Origin: an uncultured Bacillales bacterium
Lineage (GTDB): Bacteria; Bacillota_I; Bacilli_A; RF39; UBA660
Reading direction: 5' to 3'
DNA: 64,000 nucleotides
NCBI GenBank assembly: GCA_946412015.1
Contig: CAMKGA010000005.1
Span: forward strand, 2,265-66,264
This document shows, piece by piece, positions 14,219-22,835 of this stretch. A program made the position numbers and the translations under genes. Numbering within the stretch: the stretch's first letter is position 1; each line of letters opens with the position of its first letter. The notes under the pieces were generated by a model. That model had not been told where the DNA came from and made no database searches. It saw only the letters and a list, made by a program, of their open reading frames with translations.

Positions 14219-14494
14219 TTAAAAATGGCTTTTAATGTAGGTTTCAAAGTCTTTAAATTTTATTTTTTCATTATAACCATTAACAAATATGTCATCACAT
14301 TCATCAAACATTAAATAATCAATATTATTAACTTTAATAATATGTGGCATTACATAAGCAATGTTTGTTTCCTTAATACTTTTGATATTCCCATTTTTAA
14401 AAGTAGGTTTAGCACGAGCAAACTTACAAATCATTTCAACCTTTCTTTTTAGTTCTAAACTTATCTCTAATTCTTTAGTTTCTATTGTTAACAT
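14219..14494 (-). CDS. hypothetical 91-aa protein (copy 1 of an exact duplicate)
   Basis: It is identical in sequence to 22389-22664 and lies inside the 378-bp direct repeat. Confidence 0.5.
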   Translation of the reverse strand: MLTIETKELEISLELKRKVEMICKFARAKPTFKNGNIKSIKETNIAYVMPHIIKVNNIDYLMFDECDDIFVNGYNEKIKFKDFETYIKSHF

Positions 14495-14521
14495 ATAATC
14501 ACTCTCACTTTCTTAAATAAC

Positions 14522-14546
14522 AAAAAAACTAACTATTTCTAGTTAG
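14522..14546 (-). terminator. Rho-independent terminator inside DR-L
   Basis: On the minus strand, a CTAACTA-GAAA-TAGTTAG hairpin is followed by T7. Confidence 0.55.
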
Positions 14547-14737
14547 CATTTATTACTCTCGAAATGTAAAAGTTCGAGTTTCCTATCATATTGGAGCGGT
14601 TGGTTAAGTTATTTCAAACTTTTCCTCATTAATGAGAAATTAATGTTTTAATATCAATTTCTAATAATATTTTAACTTTTTCTTGTTTTTTATTCAATAT
14701 CATAATGTTCGGGATAATTATTATAAATTTTGTGTTA

Positions 14738-15544
14738 TTAATTATTTTTCATTTTACAAAATACATCAATATATGGATAACTTTTAAGTAGTTTTTTGTC
14801 ATTTGGATTGGAAAAATGTTGTTCTCTTAAATGATTTAGATAAATATTATAAGTATTCATTTCCAAAAAAGATTGCCTTAATAATTTTTTTCTTAAAATA
14901 TACAATGATGCTTTTTCATTATGTTGAATTTTTGTATATATTTCATTAAATAAACTATCATTTTTTTCTTCTATATTGATTATTTCTCCTGCTAAAGTTG
15001 CCGCATAGTTAATATCATGTGCTCCTTGTATTATTCTTCTATTCAAAAATTTTTTTGATTCAGATTTTAAGTTATTAATGTTATTTACCCTTTGCATTTG
15101 ATCAAACAATGTAGTTTTTTTATCAATAAATTGAAATTCATAATTATTAACTTTATCATCATAAAAAGTCAAATTTAATTTCGAGTTGTTTTCTAATTCA
15201 TTAAAATACAATCTAAATAATTCTAATTCTTGGGCATTATCCTTCAAAAACATGGTTATATCAAAATAATTCTCTTCACTATTATTATAAAGATTTAACA
15301 TATTATCTTTTTCAAAATGAAATACATATTTATGAGCTATTAACATCATATGTAAAATTTTTAAGAATAATACTTGTTGTTTTTTTTCAACAAATTCGTA
15401 CTTTGCGTCAAGATTTAAAATGCTTCTACGTGCATTATGAAAATATGTGTTAAAAAATTCTTTTGCGTTTTTGTTATAACAATTATATTGATTCAACAAA
15501 TTGTCTAATATTATATTAAATTTATCAAAATCTACTTGATACAT
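14738..15544 (-). CDS. hypothetical protein (IME cargo); possible HEPN-like R-x5-H motif
   Basis: 268 aa and predicted helical. NRRIIQGAHD fits the loose Rx4-6H pattern. Nothing else is recognisable. Confidence 0.4.
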   Translation of the reverse strand: MYQVDFDKFNIILDNLLNQYNCYNKNAKEFFNTYFHNARRSILNLDAKYEFVEKKQQVLFLKILHMMLIAHKYVFHFEKDNMLNLYNNSEENYFDITMFLKDNAQELELFRLYFNELENNSKLNLTFYDDKVNNYEFQFIDKKTTLFDQMQRVNNINNLKSESKKFLNRRIIQGAHDINYAATLAGEIINIEEKNDSLFNEIYTKIQHNEKASLYILRKKLLRQSFLEMNTYNIYLNHLREQHFSNPNDKKLLKSYPYIDVFCKMKNN

Positions 15545-15578
15545 AGTTAGTCACCTCCTCAATTTGTTAGTTATTATA

Positions 15579-16313
15579 TCATTTATTTAATTTATTTTCT
15601 AGTACTTTTTCTACTTCATTTATAAGTTCTTCTTTATTTGGAATATAATAAGTATAAGTGAAAGCAAAGATATTATTAGATAATCCACCTAAAGCATATT
15701 CCATAGTTATACCTTTTTTGCCAGTACAAAGAATAATACCTATTGTTTCATTATCAAATTCATCTTTAATCTCTTTATTATAACAATTAACATACATATT
15801 CATTTGCCCAGCATATTCTGGTTTCATATCATCCATTTTCAAATCTATCAATACATATGACCTTAACATTTTGTTATAAAATACTAAATCCACGTAATAG
15901 TGAGTATTGTTATCTAATGTAATTCTAACTTGGTTACTAACATACATAAAACCTTTTCCTAATTTCATTAGAAAAGATGATAGATGATTTATTAAATTCT
16001 TTTCTAAATCACTTTCAAGTAATGGTTTATTTTCTTTTATACCTAAAAATTCAAACACATAAGGTTCTTTTAATATATCAGTAGGATTACTTATTGTCTG
16101 TCCTTTTTTAGATAATTCTAATACTTTTTGTTTATTAACTTTACCATCTGAAAGCAGTAATCTTTGAAATAAAGATGAATCTATTTGTCTTTTTAACTCT
16201 CTAACAGACCATTTTGAATTAATACATTCTTTTTCATAAAAATTTCTTTCATCAATATCATCAATATATATTAGGTAACAATAATGACTCCAACTTAAAT
16301 TGCTAGACAGTGT
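15579..16313 (-). pseudogene. 5'-truncated DUF1016/YhcG-type PDDEXK nuclease
   Basis: The frame is open upstream of the track's GTG back to a TAA at ~16316. It reads ...LSWSHY...WSVRELKRQIDSSLFQR...YVDLVFYNKMLRSYVLIDLK (PD-(D/E)xK). The N-terminal part of the family is missing and there is no start or RBS. Confidence 0.6.
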
Positions 16314-16545
16314 TTGGTATTTTTAACTTCAATATAATTTTACCACATTTTATCTTTCAAATCTATCATCTTTTTCTCTGAATTTTATTCTAGAATTATC
16401 AATTTGCTTTAGAATATGATATAATTGAAGTGATATATGTTAATATTGAATTGGAGGATTAACCTGAAAACAAAAAGTAAATTTATTTTGGCAAAAATGC
16501 TAAAAAAAGGGCAGACTTCCCCTTACCCCAAGTTAAAGTCAAAAT

Positions 16546-17829
16546 TTAACTATCTAATTTGGCGTTCTGATTAATTATGCTAATAAGTTCATCAGATGTA
16601 AGACCTAAAGATAATAATTGCTTAAGAGATTGGTTGAAATTATTCTTAGTATATTTAATTCTATCTTTATCATCTGTTTCATTTGAAGCTAAATCAGATG
16701 GATTCCAAACTTCACCAGTTGATAACATATGATAGATAGCGACTAAGATTTTTCTAGCAATTGCAATATAAGCACGTTTCTTACCACTAAGTTTAGAAAT
16801 TTTATTAAATTTGTTGGCATAATAAGTATTAGCTTTATCTTTAACAGCACAATGTGCGACCTCGACTAGGCAAGGTTTAAGATAAACACCAGCTCTTGAA
16901 ATTTTAACAGATTTCTTTTTACCAGCAGATTCATTACAACCTGGAGCAAGACCAGCCCAAGCAGATAAACGATAGTGATTAGAAAATTGTGACATATCAT
17001 TACTTATTTCAGAAAGAATAGTAATTGCAGAATATCTATCAATACCAGGAATAGTCATAAGAAGAGTAATATAATCTTCATAAGGAGTGATTAAATTATC
17101 AACAATATCTCTTAATGAATTAATCTGATTAGTTAAATAATCAATATGTTCTTTGATAATATTAATTCTTAGTTTTTGTTCATTAGTAAAAGTAATACCA
17201 TTAACAGAAGATAGAATATCTTCATGAGATGACTTGCAATGTTTGTGTAAACAACTTATAATATCTTCATCTGAGAAATTATCATTATTCATAATGATAT
17301 CAACAATAGATTGACTAGATTTACCAAAGATATCGGAAAAAACCATATCTAATTTGCAATTACCAACGGTAAGTGCATTAGTATATCTATTTTTCTCAGA
17401 AGTTCTATTACAGGTAAGTTTGTATAAATAGCGAGTAAACTCTCTTAAGATTCTAAAATCTTTAGGTGGAATAAAACTAGAACGAACAATACCTAATTTA
17501 AACAAGTCTGCAATCCATTTTGCATCCTTGTTATCGTCTTTCTCACCTTTTATAACAGCAACCCATTTAGGATTGGCAACGACGACATTAGAGATATGAC
17601 CTTCTAATGCATTGTATACTGGAATATAATACTTACCAGTAGATTCCATGCATACGTTTTGACAGTCGTTTTCGAGTAACCAATTTCTAAATTCGATTAA
17701 AGAATTATTAAAGGTAGAAAAACGTTTTTTAGAGTATTTAGTTGTTTGTCCAGTAGAATCACAAATTACTGCAACAATAAAAGATTTGTGCACATCAACA
17801 CCACATGCTTTTGGATAAATAACTTTCAT
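16546..17829 (-). CDS. IS110-family transposase/recombinase
   Basis: 427 aa. It has an N-terminal DEDD (RuvC-like) region, GVDVHK...CMESTGKYY, and a C-terminal transposase_20-type region, IPGIDRYSAITILSEI. Confidence 0.9.
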   Translation of the reverse strand: MKVIYPKACGVDVHKSFIVAVICDSTGQTTKYSKKRFSTFNNSLIEFRNWLLENDCQNVCMESTGKYYIPVYNALEGHISNVVVANPKWVAVIKGEKDDNKDAKWIADLFKLGIVRSSFIPPKDFRILREFTRYLYKLTCNRTSEKNRYTNALTVGNCKLDMVFSDIFGKSSQSIVDIIMNNDNFSDEDIISCLHKHCKSSHEDILSSVNGITFTNEQKLRINIIKEHIDYLTNQINSLRDIVDNLITPYEDYITLLMTIPGIDRYSAITILSEISNDMSQFSNHYRLSAWAGLAPGCNESAGKKKSVKISRAGVYLKPCLVEVAHCAVKDKANTYYANKFNKISKLSGKKRAYIAIARKILVAIYHMLSTGEVWNPSDLASNETDDKDRIKYTKNNFNQSLKQLLSLGLTSDELISIINQNAKLDS

Positions 17830-22191: not shown

Positions 22192-22211
22192 AAATCATCA
22201 ACTCCAATTCT

Positions 22212-22263
22212 TTAAAAAAGAGGTGTCAAAAGTATTAAGTGCTTAATACTACTGACACCTCTT
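22212..22263 (-). terminator. strong hairpin plus T6 immediately upstream of the recombinase RBS
   Basis: On the minus strand, AAGAGGTGTCA..AGTATTAAG / CTTAATACT..TGACACCTCTT forms a two-part ~20-bp stem followed by TTTTTT. The GGAG and ATG at 22191 follow. Confidence 0.6.
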
Positions 22264-22388
22264 AAAATCTAATTTAGAATAATATTTGCTTTTAAACTTG
22301 AATCTCATACTATTTACCCCCCTAAATAGACATAAGTCTTCTTGGTTGATTATTCTACCACAAAACTAAGAAATGTCAAATCATCGGC

Positions 22389-22664
22389 TTAAAAATGGCT
22401 TTTAATGTAGGTTTCAAAGTCTTTAAATTTTATTTTTTCATTATAACCATTAACAAATATGTCATCACATTCATCAAACATTAAATAATCAATATTATTA
22501 ACTTTAATAATATGTGGCATTACATAAGCAATGTTTGTTTCCTTAATACTTTTGATATTCCCATTTTTAAAAGTAGGTTTAGCACGAGCAAACTTACAAA
22601 TCATTTCAACCTTTCTTTTTAGTTCTAAACTTATCTCTAATTCTTTAGTTTCTATTGTTAACAT
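22389..22664 (-). CDS. hypothetical 91-aa protein (copy 2)
   Basis: It is identical to 14219-14494. Confidence 0.5.
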   Translation of the reverse strand: MLTIETKELEISLELKRKVEMICKFARAKPTFKNGNIKSIKETNIAYVMPHIIKVNNIDYLMFDECDDIFVNGYNEKIKFKDFETYIKSHF

Positions 22665-22691
22665 ATAATCACTCTCACTTTCTTAAATAAC

Positions 22692-22716
22692 AAAAAAACT
22701 AACTATTTCTAGTTAG
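22692..22716 (-). terminator. Rho-independent terminator downstream of tRNA-Cys (copy inside DR-R)
   Basis: It is the same CTAACTA-GAAA-TAGTTAG hairpin plus T7 as at 14522-14546. Confidence 0.55.
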
Positions 22717-22761
22717 CATTTATTACTCTCGAAATGTAAAAGTTCGAGTTTCCTATCATAT

Positions 22762-22835
22762 TGGAGGGCCTAGTCGGATTTGAACCAACGATCAGGGAGT
22801 TGCAGTCCCACGCCTTACCACTTGGCTATAGACCC
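22762..22835 (-). tRNA. tRNA-Cys (GCA)
   Basis: A 74-nt cloverleaf was folded by hand. The acceptor stem is GGGTCTA/TAGGCCC, the anticodon loop is CTGCAAC, the T-loop is TTCAAAT and CCA is encoded. Confidence 0.85.

Follow-up and report, generated by a model that had tools for sequence, protein, structure and literature searches.

In this article we describe a mobile element in a DNA stretch of 64,000 nucleotides from an uncultured Bacillales bacterium (contig CAMKGA010000005.1; the whole stretch is called here the window, and all positions are those of the window unless a locus is named). In our reading, to which we assign a probability of about 0.8, an integrative mobilizable element (IME) of 8,170 bp stands behind the CCA of a tRNA-Cys gene, with a 373-bp stump of a second copy after it, so that the perfect 378-bp direct repeat found here is a by-product of accretion. 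Read along the minus strand, the order is tRNA-Cys with its ...CTCCA, the full element as far as its right end ...CCGCTCCA, then the leader, the 91-amino-acid gene and the stop codon of the stump, and finally the promoter region of map. Since related elements have no long repeats, while tandem arrays are common among them and stumps occur as well, the repeat is better explained by accretion and truncation than as a product of the recombinase or as captured chromosomal DNA.

The two repeat copies (14219-14596 and 22389-22766) were compared directly: 378 of 378 positions are identical at an offset of 8170, identity falls at once to background outside both ends (10-50% per 20-nt block), and the repeat is far beyond chance. 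A repeat search recovered its first 300 nt. Each copy contains an intact open reading frame (ORF) of 91 amino acids (14219-14494 and 22389-22664), a hairpin followed by a T-run, and a terminal CTCCA; the left edge of the repeat falls exactly on the stop codon of this ORF. The intact target gene, tRNA-Cys(gca), was placed at 22762-22835 on the minus strand, which holds nearly all genes of the window (G+C about 25%), by ARAGORN, by Rfam (tRNA, 61.7 bits) and by the junction sequence. The right repeat copy ends with the final five nucleotides of this gene, CTCCA, which comprise the last acceptor-stem base, the discriminator U and the encoded CCA. This attachment core (22762-22766, minus strand) forms junction 1, an attL-like site where the tRNA passes from ...CTCCA directly into the left end of the element, ATATGATAGGAAACTCGAAC. 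Beyond the CTCCA of the left copy (14592-14596) there is unrelated DNA, and neither ARAGORN nor Rfam found a tRNA there; between 13000 and 24000 Rfam recognized tRNA and no other RNA family. The right copy consists accordingly of the 5-bp tRNA end and the left end of the full element, and the left copy of the 5-bp core and a remnant (14219-14591, minus strand), i.e. the first 373 bp of a second element copy with leader and intact 91-amino-acid gene, which ends exactly at the stop codon of that gene and is joined to the map promoter region. A promoter-like site was also noticed across junction 1 (22755-22784, minus strand), in which the tRNA T-loop TTCAAA and the first bases of the element, TATGAT, stand 18 nt apart; it scores 9/12 as a consensus match only, and its T-loop part is conserved across tRNA genes.

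An earlier description made from the letters of the window, the sequence-only reading, had reported the perfect repeats and their offset, the 91-amino-acid ORF, terminator hairpin and CTCCA in each copy with tRNA-Cys at the right one only, and the genes in between; ARAGORN, Rfam, the ORFs, Pfam and NCBIfam bear all of this out. Its view that the element is mobilizable, has a large serine recombinase together with a MobV relaxase and lies next to tRNA-Cys is likewise supported. Serine integrases use short attachment (att) sites with a 2-bp crossover and do not make long duplications, and we share the opinion that a 378-bp repeat is atypical of such an enzyme.

The ends of the complete element (14592-22761, minus strand; 8,170 bp including one CTCCA core) were set by comparison with these relatives. 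Its parts follow each other on the minus strand as left end with leader, the 91-amino-acid gene (named here p91), recombinase, relaxase, a tract resembling an origin of transfer (oriT), cargo and right end, and all of them are on this strand except one cargo gene. The left end with its leader (22665-22761, ATATGATAGGAAACTCGAAC...) is conserved in 63 contexts (fold z = -5.65) and contains two hairpins, the second of which ends in a T-run (U-run in the RNA) and stands like a terminator behind the tRNA. The p91 copy of the full element (22389-22664) is the conserved partner of the recombinase. The right end (14592-14640, ...GGAAAAGTTTGAAATAACTTAACCAACCG-CTCCA) mimics a tRNA 3' end and closes in the second copy of the core; read as ...GGAAAAGTTTGAAATAACTTAACCAACCGCTCCA, it is a variant of the family right end in which the outer and terminal motifs are kept. 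Together with 14495-14591 it constitutes junction 2, a joined-ends sequence that is attP-like.

Genome, metagenome and assembly loci are designated here by the letter L and a number. A recombinase 87% identical to that of the window occurs in hundreds of assemblies, where it is part of a 4.4-kb unit of p91, recombinase and mob. This unit was found in at least three unrelated contexts and begins each time directly behind an encoded CCA; the gene in front is a tmRNA gene in L019, and in L020 and L026 it is a tRNA-Leu gene, a different one in each. Alignment of these contexts gives the junction as ...NCCA followed by GATTGATAGGAAACTCG (also written GATTGATAGGAAACTCGAAC) and the right end as ...CACAGGCACCA (also written ...CTTCTTCTTCACAGGCACCA). 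A scan of species-representative genomes yielded 80 further loci with 58-96% identity, almost all of them in metagenome-assembled genomes of uncultured gut or rumen 'Bacilli/Tenericutes/Mollicutes'. When genome, metagenome and assembly loci were pooled, 73 of the 100 assessable p91-led modules stood directly behind a tRNA or tmRNA gene, in 63 distinct contexts and behind 19 tRNA/tmRNA species (Thr, Gly, Leu, Cys, Phe, His, Lys, Ala, Arg, tmRNA). All targets of the family end in NCCA, and p91 starts 90-119 nt downstream; of the remaining 27 modules, most are preceded by another element ending in ...GC[A/T]CCA or by a tRNA fragment.

These loci show where p91 belongs. It is the conserved first gene of the element, it remains paired with the recombinase in modules that lack mob or have a different one, and the two diverge in parallel (pairs at 97%/96%, 74%/73%, 61%/66% and 44%/58%). 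Because p91 adjoins the recombinase behind 19 tRNA/tmRNA species and shares its divergence, it has to be counted as element DNA: judged from these comparisons, leader, p91 and recombinase are the integration module of the element, and p91 is not chromosomal. The sequence-only reading had offered the opposite as one of two possibilities, namely that the 91-amino-acid gene and the tRNA flank are chromosomal, were copied onto a circle, and let the circle enter by homologous (Campbell) recombination. It is true that RecA would produce exactly the structure of the window from a circle and a chromosome with one repeat each, and contigs with both substrates exist (L006 on the one hand, L009 and L010 on the other, see below), so RecA could have done the last step. 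However, the lone chromosomal copy in L006 is explained as a stump, and a captured chromosomal segment would hardly be found as leader and p91 next to a co-diverging recombinase in unrelated genomes. We therefore consider this origin of the 378 bp very improbable; Campbell recombination may have served in the final step of integration or excision, and in that step alone.

The p91 family comprises 439 clusters, all without annotation, and the protein has no match in Pfam, NCBIfam, PHROGs or PADLOC. Its AlphaFold model is confident (predicted local distance difference test, pLDDT, of 94) and predicts an alpha/beta protein, for which Foldseek returned no match at E < 0.1 in PDB and BFVD; the modelled fold is thus not recognisable. 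The protein could serve as a directionality, targeting or immunity factor. Two further small ORFs were considered as relatives of p91 and set aside: the second 91-amino-acid ORF of the 4.4-kb relatives is unrelated to it, and the 85-amino-acid ORF behind the L019 element is not a homologue.

The ends of the relatives decide what an insertion leaves behind. The right end was mapped in 31 elements and has the conserved form GAAAAGTTATTCGACTTCTTCT..GC[A/T]CCA; the two ends of these 31 elements have only ...C[A/T]CCA in common, identity between element ends in the family is about 3-6 bp (NCCA), 13 relatives for which both ends were located have the NCCA core alone in common, and self-comparison of 8 related loci revealed no long direct repeat. 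Of the last 14 nt of the right end in the L019/L020 lineage, 12 agree with a tRNA-Leu 3' end. Since the right-end sequence is constant whatever the target tRNA, it is an element-borne tRNA mimic and not a displaced fragment of the target. The sequence-only reading had also proposed to map the ends against an empty site, and such a site was available across species: in L027 an element lies between the CCA of tRNA-Cys and a single T (1-nt spacer) before tRNA-Gly, whereas in L033 the tRNA-Cys/tRNA-Gly pair is uninterrupted, which means that there is no duplication beyond the core. The second explanation offered by that reading, that the element regenerates its 378-bp target at every insertion, has nothing in its favour beyond the window itself and conflicts both with the 8 loci and with the 31 pairs of ends; it is extremely unlikely.

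The DNA downstream of the CCA of the target varies freely and can be another tRNA, a terminator or another element, and this pattern suggests recognition of the target from its tRNA side only. Behind tRNAs with discriminator U (Gly, Cys) the elements end in TCCA, and behind tRNAs with discriminator A and behind tmRNA they end in ACCA; the discriminator base is equal at both element ends in 30 of 31 cases. The exception is L030 (tRNA-His), where attL keeps the discriminator C and attR has T, and from this case we infer that the strands are probably exchanged 3' of the discriminator, inside CCA. The second tRNA of the window, tRNA-Arg(cct) at 49637-49713, ends in GCCA (discriminator G) and is free of tRNA-end family elements, which fits the A/U discriminator preference seen elsewhere. 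A dyad in the joined ends (AAAAGTT...AACTTTT) was dropped as a candidate motif, as it is not conserved in L027.

The enzyme of the element is a large serine recombinase of 622 amino acids (20323-22191, minus strand) with Resolvase, Recombinase and zinc-ribbon domains. PF00239 (6.6e-33) and PF07508 (3.2e-17) both pass, the zinc ribbon PF13408 is weak (18.5 bits, cut-off 25.3), and the catalytic-serine motif YKRVSTLDQ is legible in the sequence; the catalytic domain with its nucleophile serine, the recombinase domain and the zinc ribbon that define large serine recombinases are all present. The N-terminal domain matches the TP901-1 integrase structure (E = 1.4e-19), the protein matches PHROG 95 'integrase' (E = 4e-104), and its homologues are counted in thousands. 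The best-scoring named NCBIfam models are CcrB and XisF, with about 130 bits far below their cut-offs of 900 and 375. The sequence-only reading had advised a search for the module on plasmids; among the plasmid-borne recombinases of PLSDB identity does not exceed 28%. No tyrosine recombinase was found within the element, where the serine recombinase and a cargo IS110 transposase are the only recombinases. As the serine recombinase is the only one in the minimal unit, we infer that it is the enzyme acting at CCA.

Arrays and stumps both occur in this family. In the long contigs of relatives it is common to find several elements, identical or related in kind, in tandem behind a single tRNA (L036, L076, L107-L116), and element stumps were also seen in L042 and L110. 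A second, related family often stands in tandem behind the first (L107-L116 at ~12090-14276; L029 from 12215 onward; L087, L088, L093); it has another left end (TTGACGAATCTGTTCGAAC...), a p91 homologue with about 40% identity and a 640-amino-acid serine recombinase. In L111 (6800-6903) only the last 18 nt of a tRNA-Gly precede the element, and upstream of them are the tail and lysis genes of a prophage, which seems to have entered the tRNA later than the element and to have split the tRNA body from its old 3' end.

On this basis the following course of events can be proposed. In the excised circle the right end, a tRNA 3'-end mimic (...CGCTCCA), would be joined to the left end (ATATGATAGG...); the recombinase would pair these joined ends with a tRNA or tmRNA 3' end and exchange strands within CCA, by which the target tRNA would be left intact and would gain the terminator-like hairpin of the element. 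Because no conserved recognition sequence lies downstream of CCA, a tRNA already carrying an element could be hit again, and tandem arrays would result. The stump of the window may be what was left when most of the distal copy of a tandem dimer was lost, or it may already have been in place when a new copy entered the site; we do not choose between these two histories. The element would now have an attL-like site on one side and the full joined-ends sequence on the other. Provided that the downstream arm of the target plays no part, it should for this reason be able to leave and re-enter the site reversibly, either through the forward reaction of the recombinase or through RecA at the 378-bp repeat. 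Transfer via a helper conjugation system would be made possible by the MobV relaxase together with the hairpin tract.

The position of the break deserves separate consideration, since the stop codon of p91, exactly at which the stump is cut off, is also the breakpoint of other independent events. A stump of the second family in L110 breaks at the p91 stop. In L125 (12671-14160), behind tRNA-Thr(ggt), the recombinase and mob genes are lost and a 270-bp gene fragment stands in their place, while left end with leader, p91, the tract downstream of mob and the right end are kept; this may be a non-autonomous element moved in trans. In two element lineages, L016-L018 (L016 1-1143) and L130 (~1383-3010), an insertion sequence (IS) of ISLre2/UPF0236 type follows directly after the p91 stop; the copies of the two lineages are 82% identical, and their junctions imply a 9-bp target duplication, TTTTTAAGC. 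In these sequences the interval from the p91 stop to the recombinase promoter has the appearance of a hot spot for IS insertion. The p91 stop is followed by the promoter-like site of the recombinase gene within 4-30 nt, and this closeness means that few positions there tolerate insertion. The junction of the stump shares 7 nt, TTTTTAA, which would fit an IS-mediated rearrangement as a possible cause of the truncation. Two more loci leave the canonical element close by, L149 (~363-1012) 11 nt and L147 (~4824-4945) about 45 nt past the p91 stop.

The same breaks invite another interpretation, in which the attachment site lies between p91 and the recombinase gene (TTTTTAA, 22389-22395) and the element, extending from the recombinase gene past the right end to leader and p91, was inserted behind a resident p91. 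It is a circular permutation of the same structure, the attP sites of serine integrases often adjoin the integrase gene, and the independent breaks exactly at the p91 stop (window 14219, L110, L125) agree with it. In single-copy relatives, however, p91 and recombinase are adjacent and the junctions with the chromosome are at CCA on both sides. L016-L018 had been considered as alternative chromosomal insertion sites (crossover at 22395/22396) and were rejected, as the foreign DNA at this point is not chromosome and encodes a UPF0236/ISLre2-type transposase; the related IS at the same spot in L130, together with the inferred 9-bp duplication TTTTTAAGC, speaks for transposition in the same way. 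This interpretation is thus very unlikely, and we keep to an element bounded by CCA with a truncated second copy.

The same DNA is present in other samples. Exact-protein look-ups with the 91-amino-acid product and the recombinase retrieved contigs from rumen and gut metagenomes whose identity to the window is 99-100%. Both junctions are reproduced in an independent assembly of the same sample, where L001 has the order dinB, tRNA-Cys, repeat, recombinase, mob and L002 the order YhcG fragment, 268-amino-acid ORF, repeat, map; contigs of three further samples (L005, L007, L008) cross the whole repeat in the integrated sense. In L006 tRNA-Cys, repeat and map flank are directly joined without recombinase or cargo, so that the remnant only is present; it may be a precursor or an excision product. 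In two samples (L009, L010) the last 47 bp before the left repeat copy are followed by the repeat and the upstream region of the recombinase, a joint that would be expected for a circle or a head-to-tail dimer, although short-read contigs could also reflect tandem copies. The circular junction and the empty site, for which the sequence-only reading had proposed to mine long reads, have possible counterparts among the contigs: joined ends in L009 and L010, and a stump-only site in L006. Furthermore, a 5,187-bp relative is 99.8-100% identical in at least five unrelated, mutually dissimilar flanks, behind tRNA-Gly(tcc), tRNA-Cys and a tRNA-Gly fragment, and a 4.4-kb relative is 99.6-99.7% identical at three sites. 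The near-identical copies at unrelated sites, with L006, L009 and L010, indicate that the elements are probably mobile at present. The earlier claim of a very recent event holds as far as the element looks recently active; for the window itself, the perfect identity calls either for very recent events or for gene conversion.

Exact-protein look-ups with the neighbouring map and dinB products returned no element-free strain, and a metagenome scan with 25 nt of the map flank returned nothing, so that a stump-free ancestral tRNA-Cys/map interval was not seen in these searches. When the metagenomes were scanned for the 3' terminus of the p91 gene, 35 loci came up, about one third of them chance 20-mer matches; the useful ones were L125, L130, L147 and L149.

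All supporting contigs are short-read metagenome assemblies, and the 378-bp repeat is beyond their phasing. It could be, therefore, that the true chromosome reads tRNA-Cys, stump, map, and that the element is separate, as a circle or at another site, and was threaded into the contig through the shared 378 bp. Both configurations have the same de Bruijn graph, and all four joins across the repeat occur among the short metagenome contigs. Yet the contig of the window and the independent assembly (L001 with L002) both take the integrated path, L005, L007 and L008 do the same, the element has no replication gene with which it could persist as a free circle, and tandem arrays behind tRNAs are common in the long contigs of relatives. 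We regard such an assembly artefact as unlikely; even if it were true, the element, the stump and the targeting of CCA would be unchanged.

Several points weigh against the proposed model as a whole. The integrated arrangement and that of a stump with a separate circle have one k-mer graph. The evidence for strand exchange is indirect, being read from sequences, and the exact crossover dinucleotide would follow from one informative case, L030; the equal discriminators in 30 of 31 elements would agree as well with a crossover that takes in the discriminator base, L030 then being an oddity. The perfect identity of stump and full copy demands very recent events or gene conversion. Finally, the breakpoint at the p91 stop is common to three other independent rearrangements, a hot spot that the model leaves unexplained.

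Between p91 and the recombinase gene there are possible signs of control at the level of transcription. A promoter-like site for the recombinase gene (22352-22379, minus strand; TTGACA-16-TAGAAT with TG, a consensus match only) starts 9 nt past the p91 stop; it is near consensus and conserved in relatives. The recombinase mRNA leader (22192-22345, minus strand) has no Rfam match and contains a terminator-like hairpin of 21 bp; this strong hairpin with its U-run (22218-22263, minus strand; z = -4.74) lies directly upstream of the ribosome-binding site, which suggests regulation by attenuation.

The recombinase gene overlaps by 20 nt with the gene of a MobV (Mob_Pre) relaxase of 418 amino acids (19086-20342, minus strand). 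It was identified by Pfam (PF01076, 107 bits, cut-off 25.5) and the NCBIfam MobV model (NF041497, 114.8 bits, cut-off 100), and the metal-binding motif HxDExxPHxH is legible in its translation. Downstream of mob there is a structured non-coding tract (18803-19085, minus strand; z = -5.07) with four hairpins, one of them formed by the inverted repeat CTATTGGCAGAGCCAATAG, after which GTGTGTG follows. The tract is conserved in relatives, and its part at ~18924-19086 is retained in the derivative L125 in spite of the loss of the recombinase and relaxase genes there. The analogy to MobV plasmids makes this tract a candidate oriT.

The cargo (~14641-18800) is absent from relatives. It includes a histidine phosphatase (His_Phos_1; 18100-18678, plus strand; below all equivalog cut-offs) and the single IS110-family transposase of the window (16546-17829, minus strand), which with 206.5 bits passes the cut-off of 140 of the NCBIfam model 'IS110 family RNA-guided transposase'; its flanks extend over ~16059-18099, and Rfam found no match around it. 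Next to it stands the C-terminal half of a YhcG/DUF1016 PD-(D/E)xK nuclease (YhcG_C; 15579-16058, minus strand), a PADLOC candidate PDC-S02 covering profile positions 188-341 of 351, and the adjoining IS110 may have truncated this gene. The last cargo gene is an orphan ORF of 268 amino acids (14738-15544, minus strand) with no match in Pfam, NCBIfam, PADLOC or PHROGs.

The element has several properties of an IME, to which excision as a circle and mobilization by a helper may be added: it encodes its own enzyme for integration and excision, the 622-amino-acid large serine recombinase; it has a relaxase without conjugation pore genes, no type IV secretion or coupling-protein gene being present among its ORFs; and it has defined ends and a specific site, as the ends of 31 relatives, the 63 tRNA/tmRNA contexts and the cross-species empty site demonstrate. 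Among known systems, Tn4451/Tn4453 (C. perfringens, Clostridioides difficile; TnpX, TnpZ, RS_A oriT) resembles it as a small IME with a sole large serine recombinase and a Mob_Pre/MobV relaxase, with a joined-ends circle (putative in our element), a target resembling the joint and a very short core. The core of Tn4451 is reportedly a GA dinucleotide. In contrast to Tn4451, the present family inserts at NCCA ends without gene disruption and always with a 91-amino-acid gene. The IME review (PMC5704250) ascribes to the Tn4451 type low target specificity and a 2-bp core; a recombination directionality factor (RDF) is reported neither there nor for the present family. All mapped insertions of the family are at NCCA ends or CCA-ended mimics, so it is the target type that sets the two apart; orthology with TnpX is judged by description only, the best PLSDB match being 28%.

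The 3' ends of tRNA genes are usually the targets of tyrosine integrases, and the resulting tRNA/tmRNA islands (Islander type; NBU1, MTnPi4) share with our family the tRNA/tmRNA 3' end as site, a target gene that stays functional, a far end resembling part of a tRNA, and the build-up of tandem arrays and decayed remnants at one tRNA. The family differs in having a serine and no tyrosine integrase, end identity of about 3-6 bp, and single lineages that use several tRNAs; moreover, its far-end tRNA fragment, which matches tRNA-Leu in 12 of 14 nt in L019/L020, is element-borne and conserved whatever the target. According to the Islander paper (PMC4383910) serine recombinases were not known to target tRNA genes (tDNAs), and the 2017 IME review (PMC5704250) lists tRNA sites only for tyrosine integrases, with serine-recombinase IMEs inside genes or of low specificity.

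The staphylococcal cassette chromosome (SCC) with its Ccr recombinases offers another parallel: a large serine recombinase acts at the extreme 3' end of a housekeeping gene, rlmH (orfX), which is not inactivated, and tandem or composite arrays and direct-repeat remnants accumulate there. Here, however, the scores are far below the family cut-offs (CcrB 129.6 against 900, CcrC 83.9 against 900, CcrA 78.5 against 700), the targets are RNA gene ends common to many genes, a relaxase is present, and there is no ccrA/ccrB pair. With the phage integrases (phiC31, Bxb1, TP901-1, A118) the domain architecture is shared; these use one specific attB, usually in a protein gene, and a separate RDF, whereas the family has many targets of a one-sided kind, the tRNA 3' end. 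The family mixes Tn4451-like machinery, a tRNA-island lifestyle and an SCC-like habit of accretion, and lacks the defining feature of each of these groups.

No description of a serine recombinase that targets tRNA or CCA came up in the literature search, although unsearched papers could contain one. The loci may represent a large, undescribed mobilizable family of gut and rumen low-GC Bacilli/'Tenericutes', whose recombinase would read the generic 3' end of tRNA and tmRNA genes with a crossover in CCA and a one-sided attB, together with an obligatory 91-amino-acid partner of novel fold; it would then be the first clear case of a tDNA-specialised serine recombinase. For this proposition as a whole we see the chances as evenly balanced. 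The family is notable because tRNA ends have been deemed the territory of tyrosine integrases, and, if true, the finding would break this rule. The 378-bp repeat itself would be an ordinary by-product of accretion and truncation and not a new integration mechanism. The conserved 91-amino-acid partner without known fold is flagged as a new accessory protein, and the recombinase, if the proposal is true, would be a compact tool with a near-universal, harmless and one-sided target. For the biology of these bacteria, the 99.8-100% identical elements at unrelated sites point to current horizontal spread, and the family would explain why, among gut bacteria that are still poorly known, tandem arrays and stumps are met with behind tRNA genes.

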